Virus genome (UHGV): UHGV-0079336
Length of the DNA: 12,264 nt
Strand: one strand, 5' to 3'
Source: a virus
The notes under the pieces were generated by a model. The model was given only the letters and a program-made list of their open reading frames with translations. It was not told where the DNA came from and searched no databases. Positions 1 through 12,264 of this stretch are shown here, in pieces. Position 1 is the stretch's first letter, and every line of letters begins with the position of its first letter. A program made the translations under genes and the position numbers.

Positions 1-72
1 TAATAATTTTTATTTAAAAGTTAATTTTAATAAACTTTTATTACTAAAAAACTACAAGAAAGGAATGATTTT

Positions 73-279
73 ATGGAATATAATAATTATAATGGATATC
101 AACCTTATGCTCCTTTTGACGGAAATAATATTGACCCTAACATTAGTGAACAAAATTTTTTCAATCCAGCCGTTCAATATGAGCAAGCCTACATGTATTA
201 TAGGTATTTATCACAACAAATGGAATATAAAATAAAATGCAAGGAATATGAAAATTTATATAAAAATGAATGTTTGTAA
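73..279 (+). CDS. hypothetical small protein (68 aa), Tyr/Asn-rich, in AT-rich cargo
   Basis: ATG at 73 with AGGAA at 61-65 (7-nt spacer). The DNA is extremely AT-rich, so a chance ORF is possible. No recognisable motif. Confidence 0.3.
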   Translation: MEYNNYNGYQPYAPFDGNNIDPNISEQNFFNPAVQYEQAYMYYRYLSQQMEYKIKCKEYENLYKNECL

Positions 280-502
280 TTGCATGTTTAATATGATGAC
301 CTCGTGTTGACTATTATAAATTATAGGTGTGTAAGATGTTTAAAGTAGATGAGGTGATTAATATCGATTTCTTACTATATATTCAAGCCCTGTGATTAAG
401 CGATGTATTGAATGCTTGTAGGAAGGTTGTATATTATATTGTGTTTAAAATTATGGTGCTACAATTGTTTATGGCGTTTTGCAATCATGCGAAAACCTAT
501 GA

Positions 503-532
503 TTGACAATTGTTACTGAGTCTTGTAAGAAT
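503..532 (+). promoter_or_regulatory. candidate sigma70 promoter upstream of NACHT gene
   Basis: TTGACA at 503-508, then TG-n-AAGAAT (524-532) at 18-bp spacing. Hexamer match only. Confidence 0.25.
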
Positions 533-986
533 GCACCACGTATTGGTTAATGAATGTGGTGAAAAAATGGATGAGTTTCTTGCGACTATTATTAATAGCA
601 CAGTAGGAAAAGCTGCGGAAAAAATAACAGAAGTATTGCTCTCTAAACCTTGGGCTAGGGACCTAGATGAAGGCAAGGTTATACTCGAACAATTAAATGA
701 TCCCCTCGGAAGAGAAAATTATTTAAGAAAGCATGTGCTACCATCTCTGAAAATGAGAACTTTGCACAACGCTGATTATGATATTTTTTTAGATGATATT
801 TATTATCCGTTAACTGTTGAGGTGGCATCTAATAAAGACAAGGTCGTTATAAAAGATGGGATCACTTTACCATTTCATGGTATTGTAAATATAGTCGGTA
901 TAGCAGGGCAAGGGAAAAGTACTATTTTACGCAAGTTGTTTAGCGAGGAAATAAAAAAATCAGAACGGATGCCTTTTTTTTATTGA
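510..986 (+). CDS. NACHT/STAND NTPase, N-terminal fragment with Walker A (frameshifted gene, part 1)
   Basis: Translation contains GIAGQGKST (P-loop). The frame ends at TGA 984-986 directly after a T8 run (974-981). True start is uncertain: TTG 510, ATG 531 or ATG 567 (GGTGA upstream). Confidence 0.7.
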   Translation: MLLSLVRMHHVLVNECGEKMDEFLATIINSTVGKAAEKITEVLLSKPWARDLDEGKVILEQLNDPLGRENYLRKHVLPSLKMRTLHNADYDIFLDDIYYPLTVEVASNKDKVVIKDGITLPFHGIVNIVGIAGQGKSTILRKLFSEEIKKSERMPFFY

Positions 987-996
987 ATTAAGAAGG

Positions 997-2463
997 GTGA
1001 AGAATGCAAATATTATTGCTTATCTGGCAGACATTCTTAATTCATTTGGTGTGGGGTGTTCAGAGGATAGCTTGAAAATATTACTGCAATCCCAAAGAGT
1101 CGTTTTAATGTTGGATGGATTTGATGAGGTTAAACATGAAGAGCGAACTATGATGATGAATGAAATAAAAAACATTCATTATCATTTTAACACACCAATT
1201 ATCGCAACAACGAGACCAAATACAGATATATGTTATACTACTGATGTGTATAATATTTTTATAGATAAGCTAAATATTTCTGATAAGATTTGTATTCTTC
1301 ATTCTTTATCGAAAAATGACAGATTCTCAAGTAGTGATGCCTCGTTTAAAGTCTTGGCGGATTTACTATGTGATAAAGAAGAACTTGAGGGAACTATTTG
1401 CAATCCAATTTTAGTTACTCTTTTGTATTATTGTTATCCTTATATGAATGATATTCCAAATAATATAATAGAGTTTTATCGAAGCCTCTTTGACACCTTA
1501 TATGCAAGGCATGATAAAATAAAAGTATATACGCGCGAGAAAAAATCAAACATTATTGGTGAAAAAGCTAAATTGTGTTTTTCAGCTATTTGCTATAACG
1601 CACTGATTGAGGAGAAATTTGAGTTTTGGGGAGAGGAGTTGCTTAGATATGCTGAAGATGCTATTGAAACAGAAGGTTATCTTAAAGAAGATGCATCAAA
1701 CTTTATAGATGATCTTATTGAGATAACTTGCCTTATCCAACCTGAGGGAAATAATAGGTATGTTTTTCTGCATAAATCAGTGCAAGAATTTTATGCTGCT
1801 TTTGCGGTAGCAAATTTACCGATTGAGTATAAAAAAGATATATACGAAAATCTTATGGTGGCTATTAAATGCTCTGAACAGTTAGATAACTTCATGTTGT
1901 TTTTACATTCACTAGATTCCAAAGCATTTATAGATGAAATCACAATAAAAGCTTCTCGTGATATGGGGGTTGTAGATGTCGCAAACATGACGAGAGAGAG
2001 AGTTGAGAATGTTTTTGACTCGGCACTAAGTAGAGTATTTATCAAAGGCAACTCTACATCGAATGACTCAGTGATTTCGCTTCATTACGACTTTGTATTA
2101 GGTTCGCTCTTAGGTATTGATATTCTACCTATAATGTCTGGAAAAGAACGAGTTCCTATGACAGAAATTGATTTGATTTTTGACGGCCTTTTTTCATGCA
2201 CGATGGATAAGGGTGAGTTAAACTTATACAAATTTGAAGTTAAAAAACAAAAAAATAATATTGATACTGATGTTCAGACTGATGATTATTTATTTCCCTT
2301 GGTGGATTATCTTAAGGTCAGGGGGGTTTATGGTTTGATGCTGGATACTTACCATCAGACAATTAAGGATTTTTATGATAGATATTATCAACCAGCTTAT
2401 GATTCGAATCTTCGAAGAACACTAGCAATGGGAAGAAATTTCAAGTTAAAGAAAAATAATTAA
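997..2463 (+). CDS. NACHT/STAND NTPase, C-terminal fragment with Walker B (frameshifted gene, part 2)
   Basis: Translation has VVLMLDGFDEV (Walker B hhhhDGhDE), IIATTRP, CNPILVTLL and FLHKSVQEFYAAF in the order typical of NACHT domains. The frame is +1 relative to part 1 and open back to 955. Confidence 0.75.
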   Translation: MKNANIIAYLADILNSFGVGCSEDSLKILLQSQRVVLMLDGFDEVKHEERTMMMNEIKNIHYHFNTPIIATTRPNTDICYTTDVYNIFIDKLNISDKICILHSLSKNDRFSSSDASFKVLADLLCDKEELEGTICNPILVTLLYYCYPYMNDIPNNIIEFYRSLFDTLYARHDKIKVYTREKKSNIIGEKAKLCFSAICYNALIEEKFEFWGEELLRYAEDAIETEGYLKEDASNFIDDLIEITCLIQPEGNNRYVFLHKSVQEFYAAFAVANLPIEYKKDIYENLMVAIKCSEQLDNFMLFLHSLDSKAFIDEITIKASRDMGVVDVANMTRERVENVFDSALSRVFIKGNSTSNDSVISLHYDFVLGSLLGIDILPIMSGKERVPMTEIDLIFDGLFSCTMDKGELNLYKFEVKKQKNNIDTDVQTDDYLFPLVDYLKVRGVYGLMLDTYHQTIKDFYDRYYQPAYDSNLRRTLAMGRNFKLKKNN

Positions 2464-2542
2464 ATTGATAGTTACAAAGAGACAGCTAATTATAAGTTTC
2501 TAACAGTTGAAAAATTAATTGTAAGTAGGCAATATTAATAAG

Positions 2543-2658
2543 CCGGAGCCTGAACAACTCCGGTGACTTCTGCGCTAAACGGGGACGTTTATGCGCACAT
2601 ACAATCCAACCTATCTTCTCCATTCACAGATGCAGAAATGCACCTACGCTTTTTTACA
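2543..2658 (+). repeat. structured ~115-bp element, copy 1 (three hairpins then T6); candidate small RNA or cis-regulatory RNA
   Basis: Hairpin 1 CCGGAG/CTCCGG (2543-2563). Hairpin 2 is a 10-bp stem with GGGA loop (2572-2596). Hairpin 3 is TGCA-GAAA-TGCA (2631-2642). T6 at 2650-2655. Possible promoter TTGAAA 2507-2512 with AATATT 2531-2536. Homologous to 4950-5066. Confidence 0.45.
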
Positions 2659-2897
2659 TTCGGTGTTTTACTTCGACAGCCAGAATTGGGAGTCTCTATT
2701 CGTCTGGCGGCTAAAGGTGATATGGAAATCGTTATGTTTTGGCCTGAGGTAGTTGTAACTGTTGTAGCAGCTATGGCTGTGATCATCATGGTGTCCATTT
2801 ACTGGGGTTGACGACATGATTTATCCGGCGCTATATTCTGTGCGTTGCCGCAAAATCGGCACACGGGATTGGCGTCCCGGGATACTACTCAACGCAT

Positions 2898-2918
2898 ACC
2901 GCGTTAAGCGGTTTTTTT
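2898..2918 (+). terminator. weak intrinsic terminator candidate
   Basis: ACCGC-GTTAA-GCGGT hairpin followed by T7 (2912-2918). Confidence 0.3.
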
Positions 2919-3018
2919 GTGCGCTAAGCACGGCTATGCCCAAATTATGGTGGGCTGTGTGAGGGCTTCTTCGGAAGCGCCGGGTTTGAGTAGCCGGTTA
3001 CGCCAACCTTACACAGTT

Positions 3019-3049
3019 CACCACCAGTCGATTGGCGTCGTTGGTGGTG
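3019..3049 (+). promoter_or_regulatory. 8-bp inverted repeat upstream of Bro-N gene (possible operator or RNA hairpin)
   Basis: CACCACCA (3019-3026) and TGGTGGTG (3042-3049) separated by 15 nt, about 25 nt before the start at 3075. Confidence 0.25.
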
Positions 3050-3074
3050 ATGGTTAACCTGATGAGGTGATACT

Positions 3075-3683
3075 ATGACTACTCAATTAGCATTCCACAA
3101 AACGACGTTTACCCCGATTTGCCACAATAACAGAATTTGGCTTACTGCCACTGAAGTTGGTTTAGCACTGGAATATGCGGACGATAAAGCAGTTCAGCGC
3201 ATTTACTCTCGGCACTCAGATGAATTCACAGATATGATGACAAGGGTGGTCAAAGTGACCACCCCTCGTGGAATGCAGGAGTCTCGAGTATTTAGCCTTC
3301 GCGGAGCCCATTTGATCGCCATGTTTGCTCGTACTCCTGTGGCCAAAGAATTCCGCCGCTGGGTGCTGGATATTCTCGATCGAGAAGTTCAACAATCACC
3401 AATCACAAAACAATTCACTGATAACGAACTTTGCACACTCGCCTGGTTATGGCGAGCAAGTGATACGATGTTAATCGCCTGCCAGAACGTTACTCCACTT
3501 CTTCAGGTTGCGGAGCACCGCGAAGCCGGTCGCTTTACTTCTATCAGTCAGGAATATCCCCTGATACTCAGCAAGGCGCGAGCAATCCTTGCCAGAGAAA
3601 CGGCGCATGTAAAATTCCAACCGTGGCAGGATGATAAGTGGAGCAGGGTATTGCCACATTTGCGTCAGGCTAGATTGCAATAG
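3075..3683 (+). CDS. Bro-N/AntA-like antirepressor family protein (202 aa)
   Basis: GAGGTGA RBS at 3064-3070. N-terminal region (…NNRIWLTATEVGLALEYADDKAVQRIYSRHSDEF…) resembles the Bro-N/antirepressor N-terminal domain pattern. Assignment from recalled family pattern only. Confidence 0.6.
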   Translation: MTTQLAFHKTTFTPICHNNRIWLTATEVGLALEYADDKAVQRIYSRHSDEFTDMMTRVVKVTTPRGMQESRVFSLRGAHLIAMFARTPVAKEFRRWVLDILDREVQQSPITKQFTDNELCTLAWLWRASDTMLIACQNVTPLLQVAEHREAGRFTSISQEYPLILSKARAILARETAHVKFQPWQDDKWSRVLPHLRQARLQ

Positions 3684-3845
3684 TTTTACATATTAGGCGC
3701 TGAATGGATGCAAGCAGGTAGCGCACTGGGCGGCAATGATTAAGGCTTCAGATAAGCCAAGTAAGCACTGAAGAAGTTCAATGTAATCAAATTCTCTTTA
3801 TGGTATTTTCGTTAGACCCCTCATGCACTTAGATGGAAATTTGAA

Positions 3846-4046
3846 ATGATGTATTCAGTGACTTTCGATGATACTGGACGAGTAGAAGATATTGAACTAG
3901 ATCGTGAGGTTAGAGCCGGAGATAGACTCTCTCTTAATATTGATGGTCTTGATGGTATTTATATAGTCATGACTGTTAGCGGCCCTATCTATGAAAATGT
4001 TTGTATGCCAATGAATATCCGGGTTCAAAAGTATTGGAAGCAATGA
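3846..4046 (+). CDS. hypothetical protein (66 aa)
   Basis: ATG with weak GGAAA upstream; acidic small protein; followed immediately by a strong hairpin. Confidence 0.4.
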   Translation: MMYSVTFDDTGRVEDIELDREVRAGDRLSLNIDGLDGIYIVMTVSGPIYENVCMPMNIRVQKYWKQ

Positions 4047-4051
4047 TGTAT

Positions 4052-4080
4052 AATCCCCTCAGATGCTCGAGGGGATTTTT
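4052..4080 (+). terminator. hairpin with T-run (terminator or attenuator); 3' arm overlaps the RBS of the next gene
   Basis: AATCCCCTC (4052-4060) pairs with GAGGGGATT (4069-4077) around an 8-nt loop; T5 at 4076-4080; ATG at 4081. Confidence 0.45.
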
Positions 4081-4308
4081 ATGTCAGACTGGAACATTGC
4101 AGCAAAACCGCAAAAGGAACGTGACAAGGTAAGCGTTGGCCTTGCGCTTTCAGGTGTAGCGTATAAAGAACGCCCGAACATGCCGGTTATAGCTAAACAG
4201 GTAGCTAGAGAACAACTTGGGCATCTCCGCGAGTACTTAATGGATCGCGTCCGTTATTACCGTAAGCAGAGCATCACCTTCCAAAAGCATCCGAACCACG
4301 CTACATAG
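4081..4308 (+). CDS. hypothetical protein (75 aa)
   Basis: ATG 4081 with GAGGGGA at 4069-4075. The tracked ORF start at 4063 lies in the hairpin loop and is less likely. Backbone-like GC. Confidence 0.5.
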   Translation: MSDWNIAAKPQKERDKVSVGLALSGVAYKERPNMPVIAKQVAREQLGHLREYLMDRVRYYRKQSITFQKHPNHAT

Positions 4309-4323
4309 AAATGGCAGACTTAA

Positions 4324-4911
4324 ATGCAAGAAAATGAAAAGCAAGAGCAGCATGAAACTGAACCTCAGGATTTAGATTTTCCAGCAGAATTTGACTCTCT
4401 GATTAATGCAAATGGAAAGATAACACCTGCATTGCTAACGGTAGTTAACCGGTATTTTTTATATTTTTCATTCTTTGAATCACTTCTTTTGGGGTGTTCT
4501 GGAAGTCAGGGGAAGAGTTCGAAATACGCAGCGAAATTGTTGGAATTCAAATTAGTTGATCTTGACGTTCTTAAGCGAACATACTTCTTTTTTGCAGACC
4601 GTTATCTGGCAGATGTAGTGAAGTTTGAAAACCTATGTGGTGATTTAGAGCATACATCGCAGAAGGCTAGGGATGAAAAAATTAAGGCCATGCAATTAAA
4701 GACAAACGACCCTGAAATTCAGTTAGGTGTTTGTATTTTTGTTTGTTTCAGGTTGCGAAACAACCTTTTTCATGGACCAAAATGGCGTTATTTGCTTGAT
4801 GGGCAAGAGGATTTGCTCTTAATTGCCGGAAATTTTATACATTCTATTCTATTACAGGTGCCTAGTAGAGATGGCTGGGAATTCAAGAATATTTTAACTT
4901 CTACTGATTAG
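4324..4911 (+). CDS. hypothetical AT-rich cargo protein (195 aa) with HEPN-like Rx4H motif; putative RNase/abortive-infection toxin
   Basis: ORF in an AT-rich island. Contains …CFRLRNNLFHGPKW… (R-N-x-x-x-H spacing as in HEPN RNases). Poor SD, so start is uncertain. Function is inferred from the motif only. Confidence 0.5.
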   Translation: MQENEKQEQHETEPQDLDFPAEFDSLINANGKITPALLTVVNRYFLYFSFFESLLLGCSGSQGKSSKYAAKLLEFKLVDLDVLKRTYFFFADRYLADVVKFENLCGDLEHTSQKARDEKIKAMQLKTNDPEIQLGVCIFVCFRLRNNLFHGPKWRYLLDGQEDLLLIAGNFIHSILLQVPSRDGWEFKNILTSTD

Positions 4912-4949
4912 CTTTGATTTTCCATAATCAACCCGCCATAATCATGTCA

Positions 4950-5066
4950 TCGGAGCCTGAACAACTCCGGTGACTTCTGCGCTTTGAGGGGACTCAAAGT
5001 GCAAACGACAATCAGAACACCTTTCAACCAGTCACAGATGCAGAAATGCACCTGCGATTTTTTGCA
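4950..5066 (+). repeat. structured ~115-bp element, copy 2; candidate small RNA or cis-regulatory RNA just upstream of ninB
   Basis: Hairpin 1 at 4950-4970. Hairpin 2 GCGCTTTGAG-GGGA-CTCAAAGTGC at 4979-5002. TGCA-GAAA-TGCA at 5039-5050. T6 at 5058-5063. Possible promoter TTGATT 4914-4919 with CATAAT 4937-4942. Confidence 0.45.
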
Positions 5067-5096
5067 TCCAACGTTTGACCTCTGCGGAGGTGAAGC

Positions 5097-5552
5097 GTGA
5101 ACCTCCCACAAGACGGCATCAAATTACATCGCGGTAACTTCACCGCTATCGGTAAGCAGATCCAGCCTTATCTGGAGGACGGAAAATGCTTTCGCATGGT
5201 GCTTAAACCGTGGCGCGAGAGACGCAGTCTTTCCCAGAATGCACTCAGCCACATGTGGTACAGCGAAATCAGTGAGTACCTCATCAGCAGGGGGAAATCG
5301 TTCGCTACTGCAGCATGGGTAAAAGATGCTCTCAAACACACATACCTCGGTTATGAAACCAAGGACCTGGTTGATGTCGTAACCGGCGAAATCACTACGA
5401 TCCAGTCGTTACGCCATACCTCCGATCTTGATACCGGAGAGATGTATGTCTTCCTGTGTAAGGTTGAAGCCTGGGCGATGAATATTGGCTGCCACCTGAC
5501 TATTCCGCAGAGCTGCGAGTTCCAGCTGCTGCGCGACAAGCAGGAGGCGTAA
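5097..5552 (+). CDS. ninB: NinB-family recombination protein (YbcN-like, 151 aa)
   Basis: GTG start with GGAGG at 5086-5090. Translation ([15 protein letters not shown]…[18 protein letters not shown]…) matches the DLP12 YbcN/NinB family as recalled. Confidence 0.9.
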
Positions 5553-5722
5553 TGGCTACACCGCTTATTCGGGTCATGAACGGACACATCTACAGAGTAC
5601 CAAATCGTCGTAAGCGTAAGCCTGAGCTGAAGCCATCCGAAATACCAACACTGCTAGGGTATACCGCCAGCCTGGTTGATAAAAAATGGTTGCGACTGGC
5701 AGCAAGGAGGAATCATGGCTGA
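5552..5722 (+). CDS. ninE: NinE-like small protein (56 aa)
   Basis: Not in the ORF track (<60 aa). ATG overlaps the ninB stop (TAATG); AGGAGG at 5542-5547. Translation [56 protein letters not shown]. Confidence 0.75.
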   Translation: MATPLIRVMNGHIYRVPNRRKRKPELKPSEIPTLLGYTASLVDKKWLRLAARRNHG

Positions 5723-6005
5723 TTTGAGAAAAGCAGCGCGTGGTCGGGAATGCCAGGTAAGAATCCCTGGCATATGTAATGGCAACCCTGAAACGTCTGT
5801 ACTGGCACATATCCGGCTGGCTGGATTGTGTGGCACCGGTACCAAACCGCCAGACCTGATTGCCACCATTGCATGTTCTGCCTGTCACGATGAGATCGAC
5901 CGTCGCACGCATTTTGTTGACGCTGGATATGCAAAAGAATGCGCGCTGGAAGGTATGGCGAGAACACAGGTTATCTGGCTGAAAGAGGGGGTTATTAACG
6001 CGTGA
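5715..6005 (+). CDS. ybcO: YbcO-like DUF1364 prophage protein (putative nuclease, 96 aa)
   Basis: ATG 5715 after AGGAGG (5705-5710); the tracked ORF start at 5676 is an N-terminal overextension. Translation [37 protein letters not shown]… with Cys/His-rich pattern. Confidence 0.85.
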
Positions 6006-6364
6006 ATACCTACAGCATCACATTACCCTGGCCTCCGAGCAATAATCGCTATTACCGCCATAATCGCGGGCGCACGCACGTCAGCGCAGAGGGACAGGCA
6101 TACCGCGATAACGTCGCTCAAATCATTAAAAACGCAATGCTGGATATCGGCCTGGCTATGCCAGTGAAAATCCGCATTGAGTGTCACATGCCGGATCGCC
6201 GTCGCCGTGACCTGGATAATCTACAAAAGGCCGCTTTTGACGCACTCACCAAAGCAGGTTTCTGGTTGGATGATGCTCAGGTCGTTGATTATCGCGTTGT
6301 GAAGATGCCCGTTACCAAAGGTGGGAAGCTGGAGCTGACCATCACCGAACTGGGAGATGAATGA
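6002..6364 (+). CDS. rusA: RusA Holliday junction resolvase (120 aa)
   Basis: GTG start overlapping ybcO stop. Translation [37 protein letters not shown]… closely matches E. coli RusA as recalled. Confidence 0.92.
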
Positions 6365-6501
6365 TGTTTGAGTCTTATATGGCAGAACGTCTTCGCCGCC
6401 GCTGGGTGCGCCTGCGCTTATATCGTTTTCCCGGTTCTGTTTTGACCGATTACCGAATACTGAAGAATTACGCCAAAACACTGAAAGGAGCTGCCGCATG
6501 A
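6361..6501 (+). CDS. ylcG: YlcG-like small prophage protein (46 aa)
   Basis: Not in ORF track. ATG-ATG start overlapping rusA stop; stop overlaps the ATG of the next gene (ATGA). Syntenic with DLP12 rusA-ylcG. Confidence 0.5.
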
Positions 6502-7187
6502 ATATCCAATATTTACAGTATGTTCGCGAGCAACTCATGGTGGCTACCGCTGATTTGAGCGGAGTAACGAAAGGCCAGCTTGAAGCCTGGCTGGAGCATG
6601 CTCAATTTGATACTGGTACATACAAACGAAAGAAGCCGCGCATTCTGGATGAGGTAACTGGCAGGATGATTACGCTGGATAATCCGCCGATTTCCGGTAA
6701 GCAGTCGTACGCAAAAGGTTCATCCATTGCACTGGTCAGCCAGGTTGAGTTCTCAACATCTTCATGGCGCCGCGCGGTTCTGTCTCTCGAAGAACATCAG
6801 AAAGCGTGGTTGCTGTGGAGTTACAGCGAAAGTGTTCGCTGGGAGCATCAGGTTGCCATAACGCAGTGGGCATGGAACGAGTTTAAAGCTCTGTTAGGTA
6901 CAAGAAAAATTGCCAGTAAGACACTGGAACGCTTAAAGAAGTTGATCTGGCTGGCGGCACAGGATGTGAAGAACGAGCTGGCAGGGCGTAAGACCTATGA
7001 ATACCAGGAGCTGGCATCACTGGTGGGAGTGACATCAAAAAACTGGTCTGAGACATTTACTGAACGCTGGGTTGCAATGAAGCACATTTTTCTACAGCTT
7101 GATAGCCAAGCTTTATTGCTTTTAACGAAAACACGTTCAAAACAAAAGACGACATTTTCACAGCAAAGTATTGCAAAACTGGATTAA
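6498..7187 (+). CDS. putative late-gene antiterminator Q-like protein (229 aa)
   Basis: AAGGAG RBS at 6485-6490. Lies between rusA/ylcG and a promoter-leader-terminator region preceding the lysis cassette, the canonical Q position. Family not verified by sequence. Confidence 0.5.
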   Translation: MNIQYLQYVREQLMVATADLSGVTKGQLEAWLEHAQFDTGTYKRKKPRILDEVTGRMITLDNPPISGKQSYAKGSSIALVSQVEFSTSSWRRAVLSLEEHQKAWLLWSYSESVRWEHQVAITQWAWNEFKALLGTRKIASKTLERLKKLIWLAAQDVKNELAGRKTYEYQELASLVGVTSKNWSETFTERWVAMKHIFLQLDSQALLLLTKTRSKQKTTFSQQSIAKLD

Positions 7188-7199
7188 AAAGCATATATT
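7171..7199 (+). promoter_or_regulatory. late promoter candidate (pR'-like), overlapping the Q stop codon
   Basis: TTGCAA (7171-7176), 17-bp spacer, TATATT (7194-7199). Confidence 0.5.
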
Positions 7200-7368
7200 T
7201 CGTGTAAATCTGATATTTTGCCAATGTTGTACGCACTGGCAGTAATCCAAATTCAAGCTCGAGGTTTAAAGCCTTGGGCTTTTCTGTTTCTGGGCGGTGA
7301 GTATCCTTCCGACGTACCCCAGCCAGGGTGTCTTCAGCTGTTGAGTTGATATTGCTTAACCCTCTGTT

Positions 7369-7394
7369 GCCAGCTACATGCTGGCTTTTTTATT
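7369..7394 (+). terminator. intrinsic terminator (tR'-like) ending a ~180-nt leader
   Basis: GCCAGC-TACAT-GCTGGC hairpin followed by T6 (7386-7391). Confidence 0.65.
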
Positions 7395-7508
7395 CCAGGC
7401 TTGCGGGGAGCATCAACTCCGTGCTTTGTCGTTAAATTACCCCGTGAGCCTGATTTCTGACATTTAACGTCCCGGCCTTTTGTCGGCGGCGAAACATTGG
7501 CTATTCAT

Positions 7509-7814
7509 ATGCACGAAAAAGAGAGCCTTGCCGGAGCGTTCTGGCTCGTTTTGCTGATCATCGCAGGTTGGGGCGGTCTGGTCCGCTACCTGATAGATGT
7601 GAAGCAGAGTAAAGCAACGTGGAGTTGGATAAATGCTCTGGCTCAGATAGTGGTATCAGGATTCACCGGTGTTATTGGTGGCCTGATCAGCATCGAAAGT
7701 GGATTCAGTATTTACATGATTCTCGCGACAGCGGGGATTAGTGGTGCGATGGGTTCGGTTGCACTGACGTACTTCTGGGAACGACTGACAGGGGTGAAAA
7801 ATGCAAAATCTTAA
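7509..7814 (+). CDS. holin (three predicted transmembrane segments)
   Basis: Three hydrophobic stretches (FWLVLLIIAGWGGLV, WINALAQIVVSGFTGVIGGLI, IYMILATAGISGAMGSVALTYF). Directly upstream of the endolysin with overlapping stop/start. Alternative TTG start at 7497. Confidence 0.75.
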   Translation: MHEKESLAGAFWLVLLIIAGWGGLVRYLIDVKQSKATWSWINALAQIVVSGFTGVIGGLISIESGFSIYMILATAGISGAMGSVALTYFWERLTGVKNAKS

Positions 7815-8277
7815 TCCTCAGCGTAAGGCTTTCCTCGATATGGTGGCATGGTCAGAAGGAACGGATAACGGGCGACAACCGACACGTAATCACGGTTATG
7901 ATGTTATTGTTGGCGGCGAACTGTTTACTGATTACTCTGATCACCCTCGCAAACTTGTCACGTTAAACCCCAAACTCAAATCAACAGCCGCCGGACGTTA
8001 TCAGCTTCTTTCACGCTGGTGGGATGCTTACCGTAAACAGCTTGGTTTGAAAGACTTCTCCCCCAAAAGCCAGGACGCAGTGGCATTGCAGCAGATTAAA
8101 GAGCGTGGCGCTTTACCGATGATTGATCGCGGTGATATCCGTCAGGCTATCGATCGTTGCAGCAATATCTGGGCGTCGTTACCTGGTGCAGGTTACGGTC
8201 AGTATGAACATAAAATCGGTGACCTGATTTCCCGGTTTAAAGAGGTTGGCGGGGTGGTAAATGAAGTTGAGCTATAA
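7801..8277 (+). CDS. R: endolysin, lambda R-like lytic transglycosylase (158 aa)
   Basis: Translation MQNLNPQRKAFLDMVAWSEGTDNGRQPTRNHGYDVIVGGELFTDYSDHPRKLV… is near-identical to lambda R over most of its length, as recalled. Confidence 0.93.
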   Translation: MQNLNPQRKAFLDMVAWSEGTDNGRQPTRNHGYDVIVGGELFTDYSDHPRKLVTLNPKLKSTAAGRYQLLSRWWDAYRKQLGLKDFSPKSQDAVALQQIKERGALPMIDRGDIRQAIDRCSNIWASLPGAGYGQYEHKIGDLISRFKEVGGVVNEVEL

Positions 8278-8722
8278 GCTAGTTATCGCTGCTTTCTTCG
8301 TTACTATTATTGGTTCTTTCATCTGGTCAGCGAATCATTACCACAATCAAGCCATTGAATACAAAAAGCAGCGCGACGAAAACGCTATGGCATTACATTC
8401 GGCTATGGCGACGATCTCTGATATGCAGAAGCGTCAACGTGACGTAGCTGAACTTGACGCCAGATACACAAAGGAGCTTGCTGATGCTAACACGACTCTC
8501 GAAAGTCTCCGTACTGATGTCTCTGCTGGTCGTAAGCGCTTGCAAATCGCCGCCACCTGTGCAAAGTCAACGACCGGAGCCAGCGGCATGGGCTATGGAG
8601 AAAGTCCAAGACTTACAGCTGATGCTGAACTCAATTATTACCGCCTCCGAAGTGGGATCGACAAGATAACTGCACAGGTTAACTACTTGCAGGAGTACAT
8701 CAAGACACAGTGCCAGAAATGA
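8261..8722 (+). CDS. Rz: Rz i-spanin (153 aa)
   Basis: N-terminal TM segment, then …NHYHNQAIEYKKQRDENA…MQKRQRDVAELDARYTKELADA…, resembling lambda Rz. Overlaps the R stop. Confidence 0.9.
   Translation: MKLSYKLVIAAFFVTIIGSFIWSANHYHNQAIEYKKQRDENAMALHSAMATISDMQKRQRDVAELDARYTKELADANTTLESLRTDVSAGRKRLQIAATCAKSTTGASGMGYGESPRLTADAELNYYRLRSGIDKITAQVNYLQEYIKTQCQK
8484..8669 (+). CDS. Rz1: Rz1 o-spanin lipoprotein, embedded in Rz in the +1 frame
   Basis: ATG 8484 with AAGGAG at 8471-8476. Lipoprotein-like signal …LLVVSAC followed by a Pro-rich segment (KSPPPVQSQRPEPAAW). The tracked ORF begins at 8454, but the RBS supports 8484. Confidence 0.8.
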   Translation: MLTRLSKVSVLMSLLVVSACKSPPPVQSQRPEPAAWAMEKVQDLQLMLNSIITASEVGSTR

Positions 8723-8730
8723 ATCTATAG

Positions 8731-8758
8731 ATGACACTCCACGTTCGTATAAGATAAT
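8731..8758 (+). promoter_or_regulatory. candidate sigma70 promoter for the moron gene
   Basis: ATGACA (8731-8736), 16-bp spacer, GATAAT (8753-8758), about 37 nt upstream of ATG 8795. Confidence 0.4.
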
Positions 8759-8794
8759 GCTAAATTACTATTAGCTTAATCACAGGAGACGGAC

Positions 8795-9658
8795 ATGGAA
8801 AGAGGTGTGGTATTTAGTGCATGCGAATTACTTAAAACCGAGGATGGAAAAGGCATCCGTACAGGTAAATGGATTAGTCAATTAGAAATAAACTATCTAT
8901 GTCTTTATTGGGATAAACTAGTTTCACCCACTAATAATATTATACATACAGCATTAAATAACGAGGATGAATTAGAAAAATGTGGATTGCTAACCAGACC
9001 TGTATATAGACATCATGGTTGTTTTGATGGCCAATATATGGCTGATTTTTATGCTGAAACTCATGCCAAAACAATAGATATACTTAGGCATGCGGATTCT
9101 TCTGTCGATTGGCGCATGCATTTTTTAAGTGACCAAATAAACTTGGTGCCTGAATTATCTAGAACCTCAGAAGTGATACGTTTTGAGCTAGCAAATTTAT
9201 TACCCGTTCCCACAGAAGATGTGCACCTACATGATATTCTTGATTTCAAGGAAAGAAGAAAACCTGAATTAATCGCTTTACATGAATATCTTGATGAGCT
9301 TTACTTGGAAATAAAACGTTCTGGTGATATCAATCTTCAGAAAGCAAAAGCTCTTTCTAATCTTAAACAAGCAATAAAGGATATTGAACGCTTAAATTGT
9401 GAAGTGTGGAAAAGTCCAATAAAATTTAGCATCTCCACTTCCTTTGAGTTCGATTTTTCACAAATATTTAGTCTGGCGGGAACTGTTTTATCTATGTCAG
9501 TAGATTATCCTTATAATGTTATTGGAGGGGTAAGTAGTTTTGCTTATTTTTTGGGAGGATGCATAAAAATAAAGCCACAATTTCAACAAGTGTTATCATT
9601 AGGTAATGATAAATTAGTTTACATAAGCAAAGGAAAATCGGAGGGTATTATTTCCTGA
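8795..9658 (+). CDS. hypothetical moron protein (287 aa), AT-rich cargo between Rz and HNH/terminase
   Basis: Strong RBS AGGAGA at 8784-8789. Long ORF in an AT-rich island with its own promoter-like hexamers. No P-loop or other motif recognised. Confidence 0.7.
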   Translation: MERGVVFSACELLKTEDGKGIRTGKWISQLEINYLCLYWDKLVSPTNNIIHTALNNEDELEKCGLLTRPVYRHHGCFDGQYMADFYAETHAKTIDILRHADSSVDWRMHFLSDQINLVPELSRTSEVIRFELANLLPVPTEDVHLHDILDFKERRKPELIALHEYLDELYLEIKRSGDINLQKAKALSNLKQAIKDIERLNCEVWKSPIKFSISTSFEFDFSQIFSLAGTVLSMSVDYPYNVIGGVSSFAYFLGGCIKIKPQFQQVLSLGNDKLVYISKGKSEGIIS

Positions 9659-9734
9659 TTTTTGATTCTCATAATCAATGAATGTTTTTTGTGAATATAC
9701 TTATTTTAACCCTATAAATAATCAAGGTAATAAA

Positions 9735-10085
9735 GTGCCTCCTCGTATCCCGAAAGCCTGCCGTGCTCGAGGTTGCCGTAATACCACCACAGACCCGTCA
9801 GGCTACTGCGAAAGCCACAAAAGCGAAGGCTGGAAGCAATACAAGCCAGGCCAGTCCCGACACCAGCGCGGTTATGGTGCGAAATGGGATGTTATCCGTG
9901 AACGTGTGCTCAAGCGTGACAAAGGCCTGTGTCAGTTGTGTTTGCGTGCCGGTGTGGTGCGCGAGGCGAAAACCGTTGACCACATCATCCCTAAAGCACA
10001 TGGCGGCACTGATGCCGACAGTAATCTGCAGAGTCTGTGCTGGCCGTGTCATAAGGCGAAGACGGCCCGTGAACGGTTAAAGTGA
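9735..10085 (+). CDS. HNH endonuclease (terminase-associated, HK97 gp74-like)
   Basis: GTG 9735 with AAGG at 9724-9727, where composition switches from AT-rich to GC-rich; the tracked ATG at 9678 is probably an overextension. Cys/His motif: CRARGC…CESH…DHIIPKAHGGTD…NLQSLCWPCHKAK. Confidence 0.85.
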   Translation: MPPRIPKACRARGCRNTTTDPSGYCESHKSEGWKQYKPGQSRHQRGYGAKWDVIRERVLKRDKGLCQLCLRAGVVREAKTVDHIIPKAHGGTDADSNLQSLCWPCHKAKTARERLK

Positions 10086-10112
10086 TAATAATTCTCAACT
10101 GTCTGTGGGGGA

Positions 10113-10172
10113 GGGGCGGGTCAAATCCCTGTGACCTGACGTCTTCCGGACTGCCCGCCCCATCGTTTTTTT
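10113..10172 (+). terminator. GC-rich hairpin plus T7 between HNH and terS (terminator and/or part of the cos packaging region)
   Basis: GGGGCGGG (10113-10120) pairs with CCCGCCCC (10154-10161) across a 33-nt loop; T7 at 10166-10172. The position matches where cos lies in HK97-like phages. Confidence 0.35.
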
Positions 10173-10211
10173 ATACCCGCGAAAAATGAAATTTAACCAG
10201 GAGTGCCGCAT

Positions 10212-10706
10212 ATGGCTGGAACGGCGGGGCGTTCCGGGCGTCGCCCCAAGCCAACGGCGCGCAAGGCGCTGGCCGGAAACCCCGGCAAGCGAGCCCTGAA
10301 CAAAGATGAACCTGTTTTTACGCCCATCAAAGGTGTTGAGCCACCGGAGTGGTTCGCAGAAGAAGATCTCCCTCTCGCCACGATCATGTGGCAACTGACA
10401 ACCAAAGAACTCTGCGGTCAGGGCCTGCTGTGCGTGACTGACCTGGCGGTACTTGAGCGGTGGTGCGTGGCCTATGAGTTCTGGCGACGTGCCGTGAAAA
10501 ATATTGCCAGCCAGGGCAACACCATCACCGGTGCAATGGGCGGCAGGGTCAAAAACCCGGAGCTGACCGCCAAGAAAGAACAGGAGTCCGAGATGAGCAG
10601 CACGGGGGCAATGCTCGGACTCGACCCCAGCAGCCGCCAGCGTCTGATAGGCCTGGCGGGGCAGAAGAAAGCCACTAACCCGTTTCTGAAAATCATCGAA
10701 TCATGA
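10212..10706 (+). CDS. terS: terminase small subunit (P27/HK97 gp1 family)
   Basis: ATG 10212 with AGGAG at 10198-10202; the tracked GTG at 10203 has no spacer. N-terminus [34 protein letters not shown] is typical of P27-family small terminases. Confidence 0.85.
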
Positions 10707-12264
10707 GCCGGAAATCTTACCCCAACGTAAATGCTGCCAATCAGTATGCCCGTGATGTCGTGCGGGGAAAGATTGTGGCCTGCCAGTTTGTGATTCAGGC
10801 CTGCCAGCGCCATCTTGATGACCTGATGGCGGAAAAAAGTAAGTCGTTTCGTTACCGCTTCGACAAGGACCTGGCTGAACGGGCCGCCAAATTTATTCAA
10901 CTGTTGCCGCACACCAAGGGTGAGTGGGCATTTAAGAGGATGCCCATCACGCTGGAGCCGTGGCAGCTCTTTGTGATCTGCTGCGCGTTTGGCTGGGTCA
11001 ATAAAGGCTCCCGGCTGCGCCGCTTCCGTGAGGTGTATACCGAAATCCCCCGTAAGAACGGCAAATCGGCAATCTCTGCCGGTGTCGCCCTGTATTGTTT
11101 TGCCTGTGATAACGAGTTTGGCGCGGAAGTGTATTCCGGTGCCACGACAGAGAAACAGGCGTGGGAAGTCTTTCGCCCGGCGCGACTGATGTGTAAACGC
11201 ACACCCATGCTGACGGAAGCGTTCGGGATTGAGGTTAACGCCTCAAACATGAACCGTCCGGAGGATGGCGCGCGGTTTGAACCGCTGATCGGTAACCCCG
11301 GTGATGGATCATCACCCCACTGTGCGGTGGTGGATGAATATCACGAGCACGCCACCGATGCGCTTTACACCACGATGCTTACCGGGATGGGGGCGCGACG
11401 TCAGCCACTGATGTGGGCCATTACTACTGCCGGGTACAACATTGAGGGGCCGTGCTACGACAAACGGCGGGAAGTTATCGAGATGCTCAACGGTTCGGTA
11501 CCCAACGATGAACTGTTCGGGATCATCTATACCGTTGACGAAGGTGACGACTGGACCAACCCACAGGTGCTGGAAAAAGCCAACCCGAATATCGGGGTGT
11601 CGGTTTACCGTGAGTTTTTGTTAAGTCAGCAACAGCGTGCGAAAAATAACGCCCGTCTGGCAAACGTCTTTAAAACAAAACACCTCAATATCTGGGTGTC
11701 GGCGCGTTCGGCGTATTTCAACCTGGTGAGCTGGCAGAGCTGCGAGGATAAATCACTGACTCTTGAGCAATTCGAGGGGCAGCCGTGCATTCTGGCCTTT
11801 GACCTGGCGCGTAAACTGGATATGAACAGCATGGCGCGACTTTATACCCGCGAGATTGACGGTAAAACGCATTACTACAGTGTGGCCCCGCGTTTCTGGG
11901 TACCGTATGACACGGTGTACAGCGTCGAGAAAAATGAAGATCGACGGACAGCCGAACGCTTTCAGAAATGGGTGGAAATGGGCGTTCTGACCGTTACCGA
12001 TGGTGCGGAAGTGGATTATCGCTACATCCTCGAGGAGGCCAAAGCGGCGAACAAAATCAGCCCGGTCAGTGAGTCACCCATCGACCCCTTCGGGGCGACC
12101 GGGCTGTCACATGACCTTGCTGATGAAGACCTGAATCCCATCACTATCATTCAGAACTACACCAACATGTCCGACCCGATGAAAGAGCTGGAAGCGGCAA
12201 TTGAATCGGGGCGCTTTCATCATGATGGCAATCCCATCATGACCTGGTGTATCGGCAACGTGGT
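10703..12264 (+). CDS. terL: terminase large subunit, 5' partial (runs off the window end)
   Basis: Absent from the ORF track because it has no stop in the window. ATG 10703 overlaps the terS stop (ATGA). Continuous 520-codon frame to 12264 with Walker A-like EIPRKNGKS and acidic motifs (VVDEYHE). Confidence 0.9.

Follow-up and report, generated by a model that had tools for sequence, protein, structure and literature searches.

The stretch of DNA analysed here, referred to as the window, covers 12,264 nt of the virus genome UHGV-0079336, and all of it is one metagenome contig (ENA ERZ772868, NODE_2864, SPAdes-style) with a coverage of 3.7x. Its AT-rich stretches are very probably optional accessory cassettes (morons), inserted at two classical variable slots of lambdoid phages. 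The first slot (slot A) extends from ren to ylcH/ybcN, the position of ninB, and is filled at 248-4913 by three stacked cassettes: a NACHT NTPase gene with its leader, a regulatory module with isrK, C4 antisense RNA, and an antirepressor gene, and a module composed of orf66, a homologue of the theta subunit of DNA polymerase III, and orf195. The second slot (slot B), with Rz/Rz1 on one side and packaging genes on the other, contains a DUF6236 gene. The window as a whole is most probably a piece of a mosaic temperate Escherichia coli phage, in which a delayed-early and lysis region of the DLP12/phage-82 type is joined to an HNH/P27-terminase head module (SfV/HK97-like). The finding is that of ordinary moron-type cargo at long-known slots; the orf195 and DUF6236 families found there are uncharacterised. 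The positions of the features are listed in Table 1.

The base composition of the window changes in steps. The G+C content (GC), calculated in 300-nt windows, was 0.23-0.36 in the region of 1-2540, 0.37-0.40 at approximately 4300-4950, and 0.31-0.36 at 8700-9700, as compared with 0.47-0.61 elsewhere. Recursive Jensen-Shannon segmentation on G+C placed breakpoints at 2541, 8716, and 9736, with likelihood-ratio statistics of 231, 75, and 80, respectively; at a lower threshold, further breakpoints appeared at 3734 (25) and 4931 (16). The highest statistic obtained from 20 shuffles, which served as the null, was 8.4. The AT-rich segments are far beyond chance. The GC of the NACHT cassette, the orf66-theta-orf195 module, and the DUF6236 cassette was 0.32, 0.39, and 0.33, respectively, versus 0.47-0.56 in the flanks. 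At the third codon position, the values were 0.27-0.29 for the NACHT gene, 0.28 for orf66, 0.33 for orf195, and 0.23 for the DUF6236 gene, versus 0.44-0.69 for the backbone genes. The breakpoints agree with the homology junctions between the window and related prophages, which are at 2543/2544, 3668/3669, 4913/4914, and 9735/9736. In lambdoid prophages, steps in composition are by themselves enough to place accessory cassettes, with an error of a few bases at the junctions.

An earlier note on this DNA, made from its letters, had described three AT-rich islands in a conserved backbone of approximately 50% GC. The steps in composition are real, as seen by sliding GC, third-position GC, and segmentation, but the coordinates need correction. 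The first island was taken to start at position 1; however, 1-247 is Clostridia DNA, as described below. The second island, placed at 4310-4945, belongs to a low-GC segment that actually extends over 3735-4931 and includes orf66, theta, and orf195. The region of 2544-3668 (about 49% GC), which had been assigned to the conserved backbone, is an optional module. It is absent from the prophage of E. coli ANT and from phage 82, and is therefore cargo too, despite its normal GC. In other words, slot A does not contain separate islands in backbone DNA but is filled by stacked cassettes, and one of them, the isrK/antirepressor cassette (GC of 0.49), is the compositional exception.

Presence and absence were counted in a set of 5426 complete E. 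coli genomes. Of these, 4738 matched the window in at least some part. The NACHT cassette was found in nine genomes, each time after a truncated ren and only in a prophage context. The orf66-theta-orf195 module was found in a single genome, LR-50, with an identity of 99.8%. The DUF6236 gene was present in 32 genomes, again only in a prophage context and always in the order lysis protein, DUF6236, HNH. The isrK/antirepressor module was found in approximately 160 genomes at more than 90% identity. The flanks, in contrast to the cassettes, were found in thousands of genomes: the lysis-to-terminase stretch (7188-11200) was matched in 3483, and in just 31 of these was it covered to at least 80%. 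In these counts, related prophages with the same flanks do not regularly carry the same genes in the slots, contrary to what conserved core genes would show. Two of the features by which morons are recognised are seen here. The cassettes of the window are present or absent at fixed positions between close relatives, and their composition is unlike that of the flanks, with the exception of the isrK/antirepressor cassette.

Both slots contain other genes in the relatives, as had been proposed for the sites upstream of ninB and between Rz and terminase. Slot A is occupied by the NACHT cassette alone in ANT, by a SIR2-family gene in OW1E2, by a reverse-strand gene for a 472-aa protein in LR-50, and by emrE-ylcJ-ybcK-ybcL-ybcM in DLP12. 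Slot B is empty in the phage isolate vB_EcoM-720R4. It contains an open reading frame (ORF) of 168 aa in phage 689R6, iss in ANT, DUF6979 and a hypothetical gene in LR-50, and borD-ybcV-ybcW-ylcI in DLP12. In a spread sample of prophages having both flanks, genes for an S1 peptidase, DUF2513, DUF2441, and others were found in slot B, and the record spans varied between 2486 and 3799 nt for the same query span. These alternative cargo genes are AT-rich too: GC was 0.36 for the SIR2-family gene, 0.36 for the 472-aa gene of LR-50, and 0.39 for the 168-aa ORF. All cargo genes of the window, like every convincing gene in it, are on the plus strand, so that the reported co-orientation with the phage operons holds here. 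It is not a rule of the slots, however, since iss in ANT and the 472-aa gene in LR-50 are on the opposite strand. In OW1E2, the SIR2-family protein has 643 residues (2735-4666 of the retrieved locus) and is followed by a decayed antirepressor remnant. The 472-aa gene of LR-50 is located at 4453-5871 of the retrieved locus and encodes a hypothetical protein.

The slots of DLP12 share their flanking genes and boundaries with those of the window. In DLP12, the emrE-ybcM cargo lies upstream of ylcH-ybcN-ninE-ybcO-rusA-ylcG and stops 32 nt short of the position equivalent to 4913 of the window, and a second block, borD-ylcI, lies between rzpD and the small terminase gene (nohD). The window differs from DLP12 and from morons of the lambda bor/lom type in the cargo genes themselves, in having HNH and a P27-family terminase instead of nohD, and in having a duplicated linker and stacked cassettes. 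A similar arrangement is known from the antiviral hotspots of P2-like phages and P4-like satellites (PMC9122126), where unrelated, mostly AT-rich genes, often of defence type, are swapped in a fixed slot between conserved flanks. The window differs from these in its lambdoid early region, in its other flanks, and in that its cargo has no PADLOC match. By annotation, slot A, a possible defence hotspot, carries NACHT and SIR2-family proteins in relatives.

The cassettes of slot A are separated by copies of a conserved linker. The segment of 2544-2674 is a direct repeat of 4951-5082 with 82-91% identity, and both belong to a unit of approximately 170 nt, of which the left 37 nt are missing from the first copy. 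Both linker hairpins are strong (folding z-scores of -3.9 and -4.4). In phage 82, DLP12, OW1E2, and LR-50 alike, the match to the window sets in at 4913/4914. This means that unrelated cargo ends at the same base. In the record of phage 82, a putative -35/-10 and a regulator-binding repeat are annotated in the linker. The hairpin H2 keeps 10-11 bp across four different stem sequences, and its GGGA loop is invariant in 11 copies from E. coli and Klebsiella oxytoca. No family in Rfam was matched by the linker. Each stacked cassette of slot A ends at a linker copy, which comprises a promoter-like site, two hairpins, and a small ORF, that of ylcH, containing a terminator-like hairpin. Cassettes would most likely be added, swapped, and lost by homologous recombination, with the linker copies of different prophages as its substrate. 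Upstream of ylcH/ybcN, H2 may act as a regulatory element, in RNA or DNA, that has not been recognised so far; a further and rather improbable possibility would make the linker as a whole, covarying GGGA-loop hairpin included, a dedicated joint for cassette exchange and regulation.

Exchange in slot B appears to follow other boundaries. All four independent comparators place the right-hand junction at 9736, one base beyond the initial letter of the HNH start codon. The left junction is variable because the Rz alleles differ. Exchange is located precisely at the start codon of HNH on one side and, on the other, inside the variable Rz gene or behind it, with recombination as its probable mechanism. 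The HNH start codon is GTG in the window and ATG in the relatives, and its ribosome-binding site comes from the DUF6236 cassette. It should be mentioned that slot B (8722/9736) is also the seam of two backbone modules, the lambdoid early and lysis region with a GC of 0.47-0.50 (0.49 overall) and the HNH-terminase head region with a GC of 0.55-0.60 (0.56 overall). For the two hotspots, exact and reusable boundaries are thus available, namely position 4913/4914, where the ylcH/ybcN linker starts, and the start codon of HNH; a census of cargo in prophages of Enterobacteriaceae can be based on them.

As to function, the most likely role of the cargo is in conflicts with other phages, to the advantage of either the lysogen or the phage that carries it. 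Its genes can presumably be transcribed together with the operons of the host phage, and the promoter-like sites before the NACHT and DUF6236 genes, which are consensus matches only, could allow expression from a repressed prophage. The orf195 family, DUF6236, and one short NACHT protein are nominated here as candidates for phage conflict.

The NACHT cassette is 99.4% identical to that of ANT. In ANT, AR_0369, and STEC17-190, the NACHT gene follows the truncated ren as a single intact ORF of 631 aa. In the window, the reading frame is not intact. The run at 974-981 is T7 in the three strains and T8 in the window and in 2014C-4135, and this T8 splits the gene between the Walker A and Walker B motifs. 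In strain 720632, the gene is cut off by another +1 (A) frameshift. Three of the ten NACHT copies (those of the window, 2014C-4135, and 720632) are thus broken at homopolymers, which could reflect recurrent inactivation, slippage switching, or sequencing error.

The intact ANT allele scored 44 bits with the NACHT model of Pfam (cut-off of 26.7). The protein has a Walker A motif, GIAGQGKST, and a Walker B motif, LDGFDE. The pattern D[GAS]hDE has been described as the NACHT-specific Walker B signature (10.1101/2022.07.19.500537), and the corresponding residues of the window are DGFDE. Relatives with 33-44% identity, from Enterobacterales, Vibrio, and Aeromonas, carry the SNaCT1 domain (PF22710). 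The protein resembles the bNACHT01-like clade 14 (10.1101/2022.07.19.500537) in its length of about 630 aa, its central NACHT domain with Walker A and DGFDE Walker B, its short, non-repeat C-terminal region, and the presence of SNaCT1 in relatives. It differs from the clade in that the ANT allele did not reach the SNaCT1 model in the Pfam scan, in that the N-terminal region of approximately 105 aa has no recognised effector domain, and in that the window copy is frameshifted. By its family membership, the protein seems to be a short bacterial NLR-like STAND NTPase, which might detect infection and respond to it with cell death or an arrest of growth. GiPD474, a defence protein of Gifsy-1 (PMC12724215), was considered as a relative and rejected: being a ParA-like ATPase encoded in the immunity region, it is unrelated to the NACHT gene.

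In the second cassette, the antirepressor gene starts 47 nt downstream of the C4 RNA. Together with the NACHT cassette, it is collinear with the genome of 2014C-4135 as far as 3668. As judged by the Rfam and Pfam matches, the predicted unit of isrK, C4, and antirepressor is a known regulatory module of the Gifsy-1/P1 type inside the nin-region slot. It is similar to the isrK locus of Gifsy-1 (PMC4825925) and to the c4-ant immunity module of P1/P7, in that the isrK and C4 matches are directly upstream of a Bro-N/P22AR_C antirepressor-like gene. It differs from them in being located in a lambdoid prophage of E. coli, between ren and ninB, and in that no antQ-type gene adjoins it in the window.

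In the third cassette, orf195 represents a family of its own. Homologues with 55-72% amino acid identity are located immediately upstream of a ninB-like gene in prophages of Klebsiella, Citrobacter, Enterobacter, and Salmonella. The family has the invariant motif CFRLRNNLFHGPKW and, in a form with variable positions, RxRNNLFHGxKW. A profile search gave 541 representative clusters of proteins of approximately 165 aa, in which E52, R93, R145, N147, H150, G151, and K153 are invariant. The segment R145-N-N-L-F-H150 (Rx4H) is shared without exception by 24 close and 40 distant relatives, and Pfam scans of these same relatives gave no consistent family. The AlphaFold model of orf195 is all-helical, with a predicted local distance difference test (pLDDT) score of 80. 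A Foldseek search of BFVD with orf195 gave no match at E < 1, and a profile search of PDB sequences gave nothing meaningful. The invariant Rx4H motif in this helical model would fit a HEPN-type RNase; the sequence and fold searches gave no significant link to any known HEPN domain.

Members of the orf195 family are often paired with a phage homologue of theta, and in the NCBIfam scan theta alone was matched. Phage P1 also encodes a theta homologue, HOT. The theta homologue of the window is likewise borne by a phage, but it differs from HOT in being linked to the uncharacterised orf195 and in being decayed in relatives. The HolE-like gene is intact in the window, frameshifted in LR-50 (7538-7794 of the retrieved locus), and reduced to an ORF of 31 aa in three K. 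oxytoca prophages (5758-5853 of one retrieved locus), and orf195 is intact in these. Since theta decays while orf195 stays intact, the pairing may not be functionally obligatory.

The family assignment of the gene in slot B is clear, as all of the 88 homologues of DUF6236 carry PF19749. The AlphaFold model is of moderate quality (pLDDT of 71), and its C-terminus is unstructured and mildly hydrophobic. The model suggests a Rossmann-like N-terminal domain followed by a moderately hydrophobic C-terminus. A transmembrane segment was not convincing, the maximum Kyte-Doolittle mean over 19 residues being 1.25. A search of PDB sequences with the DUF6236 profile gave nothing meaningful. A literature search for DUF6236/PF19749, the PHROG identifiers, and the RefSeq protein accessions found no papers on DUF6236 or the orf195 family.

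The distribution of these two genes leads to another reading of the AT-rich genes, which is appreciably less probable and still deserves weight. The genes might be ordinary phage genes, vertically kept for functions in the lytic cycle or in counter-defence, the low GC being a trait of the families, and not cargo that benefits the lysogen. The theta-orf195-linker-ninB locus of K. oxytoca prophages is collinear with that of the window at 70-74% nucleotide identity (74% over 4049-5720), and in prophages of K. pneumoniae the slot between lysis genes and HNH likewise holds homologues of DUF6236, with 47-48% amino acid identity. Both genes remain AT-rich there (GC of 0.39-0.40) in backgrounds of 55-57% GC. 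Therefore, their low GC is a stable family trait and not a sign of recent arrival; the earlier description of the islands as compositionally foreign holds only loosely. DUF6236 also lies inside the late operon without a terminator, and a remote relative of orf195 is located among early accessory genes near an integrase. On the other hand, most related prophages lack both orf195 and DUF6236, and a distant homologue of DUF6236 is a lone chromosomal gene in Pseudoalteromonas. The empty slot B of vB_EcoM-720R4 means that the genes of the slot are dispensable. These points favour optional moron cargo. A more specific proposal, which we regard as speculative and rather improbable, is that the orf195 family, DUF6236, or both are unrecognised single-gene effectors of phage conflict (abortive infection, exclusion, or counter-defence) at lambdoid hotspots.

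Several other observations weigh against the interpretation of the AT-rich stretches as morons for the lysogen. The long residence of orf195 and DUF6236 in these slots across genera is possibly that of ordinary optional phage genes with lytic-cycle functions. PADLOC, run on all cargo proteins, gave no defence model apart from generic HNH matches. The NACHT cassette is probably non-functional in this genome, because the T8 run breaks the predicted frame. Promoter-like matches are barely enriched in the window (34, versus 24 +/- 5.6 in shuffles), and no hairpin or terminator was found after the DUF6236 gene (z = 0.26); therefore, the classical anatomy of a moron, with a promoter and a terminator of its own, is at most tentative here. 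Finally, the full combination of cassettes in the window was found in none of the complete E. coli genomes, and an assembly join across the 131-nt linker repeat is possible in a contig of 3.7x.

That the islands as a whole are artefacts of metagenome assembly, foreign DNA having been joined to a prophage, is very unlikely, even though one end of the contig is of this kind. Window 1-270 is 90% identical to a scaffold of Clostridium sp. CAG:492 (3449-3717 of the retrieved locus). An ORF at 73-279, orf68, has 94% amino acid identity to a protein of the same organism and 225 relatives in Clostridia genomes. Homology to E. coli prophages begins at 248, from which position all nine genomes with the NACHT cassette match the window, and it overlaps the Clostridium homology in an exact 23-nt AT-rich stretch, ATGAAAATTTATATAAAAATGAA (248-270). 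No match to 1-247 was found in the E. coli genomes, sensitive blastn included. Because the Clostridium and E. coli homologies share 23 nt at the end of a 3.7x contig, this segment is read as a misjoin; it is almost certainly an assembly chimera with the signature of a de Bruijn-graph misjoin, and not phage cargo. It is worth bearing in mind for similar data that the part of the described islands with the highest AT content is Clostridia DNA, attached to an E. coli prophage in a metagenome contig of low coverage. The type of contig and the linker repeat, which could mislead an assembler or join two co-occurring prophages, might raise the same suspicion for the cassettes. However, each internal junction, the 1-247 end aside, was confirmed in some finished E. 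coli chromosome. The NACHT-linker-antirepressor junction is present in 2014C-4135, AR_0369, and STEC17-190, the order antirepressor-orf66-theta-orf195-linker-ybcN is present in LR-50, and the order Rz-DUF6236-HNH is that of the 32 genomes mentioned above.

Insertion of autonomous mobile elements (an insertion sequence (IS), a transposon, or an integrative satellite) can practically be dismissed: in each of the nine genomes, the NACHT cassette has a truncated ren at its left edge, and IS do insert nearby in relatives, such as IS3 in renD of DLP12, but ORF and family scans of all cassettes found no transposase, integrase, or recombinase, the repeat analysis of the window found no flanking terminal inverted repeats or target-site duplications, and the junctions are gene or linker boundaries common to unrelated cargo.

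Table 1. Features of the 12,264-nt window (positions in nt; predicted unless otherwise stated).
Feature	Position	Strand	Basis or remark
Clostridia-derived contig end	1-247	+	90% nucleotide identity to Clostridium sp. CAG:492
NACHT cassette (slot A)	248-2543	+	AT-rich leader, then NACHT NTPase gene
Promoter-like site ahead of NACHT	503-532	+	Consensus match
NACHT NTPase gene	567-2463	+	Split into 567-986 and 997-2463; T8 run at 974-981
isrK/antirepressor module, including linker copy 1 (slot A)	2544-3668	+	
Linker copy 1	2544-2674	+	Left 37 nt missing; hairpins H1 2542-2564, H2 2571-2597; folding z -3.9
phrog_4612 ORF	2638-2811	+	PHROG
isrK	2846-2918	+	Rfam, 58.7 bits (gathering score 50)
C4 antisense RNA	2943-3028	+	Rfam, 74.8 bits (gathering score 45)
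Bro-N/P22AR_C antirepressor gene	3075-3683	+	Pfam Bro-N, P22_AR_C; PHROG anti-repressor families
orf66-theta-orf195 module (slot A)	3669-4913	+	Low-GC segment 3735-4931
orf66	3846-4046	+	ORF
Terminator-like hairpin and T-run ahead of theta	4052-4077	+	
DNA polymerase III theta homologue	4081 (or 4063)-4308	+	Pfam DNA_pol3_theta, E = 7e-25
orf195	4324-4911	+	ORF; own family
Linker copy 2	4914-5096	+	Full length; promoter-like TTGATT-17-CATAAT 4914-4942; H1 4946-4974; H2 4978-5003
ylcH-like orf33, in linker copy 2	4998-5099	+	ORF
Terminator-like hairpin H3, within ylcH-like ORF	5039-5062	+	
Early/lysis backbone	5097-8722	+	Pfam; 92-97% identity to phage 82, DLP12, and many E. coli prophages
ybcN/NinB-like	5097-5552	+	Pfam
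NinE, YbcO, RusA, YlcG (in that order)	between ybcN and Q	+	Pfam
Antiterminator Q	6498-7187	+	Pfam
Holin, LydA-type	7509-7814	+	Pfam
Lysozyme	7801-8277	+	Pfam
Rz	8261-8722	+	Pfam
Rz1, embedded in Rz	within 8454-8669	+	ORF in +1 frame
DUF6236 cassette (slot B)	8723-9735	+	1013 nt
Promoter-like site ahead of DUF6236	8731-8758	+	Consensus match
DUF6236 gene	8795-9658	+	Pfam PF19749, 109.7 bits (cut-off 26.2), E = 2e-31
Unstructured spacer	after DUF6236 gene to HNH start codon	+	
Head-module backbone	9735-12264	+	Pfam HNH, Terminase_4; 95-97% identity to SfV, SfII, and other phages
HNH endonuclease	9735 (GTG)-10085	+	Pfam
Small terminase, P27-family	10203-10706	+	Pfam
Large terminase, partial	10703 to window end	+	Pfam

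The order of the backbone genes, given earlier as nin region, Q, lysis, and HNH/terminase, was confirmed by Pfam. In complete genomes, the same prophage type runs on beyond the window into an HK97-type head and a contractile tail. Apart from the cassettes themselves, three results of the analysis are of use: the boundaries of the slots, the linker hairpin with its covarying stem, and two gene families that are uncharacterised. In the ORF embedded in Rz, a signal of the lipoprotein type, LLVVSAC, is present, in line with what is expected of an Rz1 spanin partner.

A GC dip (to 0.40) at approximately 7000-7400 was also considered as cargo and rejected, as it falls in the intergenic region between Q and the holin gene. 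A search for tRNA genes between Q and the holin gene found none. This region (7188-7496) contains three terminator-like hairpins, at 7255-7281, 7369-7385, and 7402-7423, and is presumably the late promoter with its terminated leader, where Q acts.

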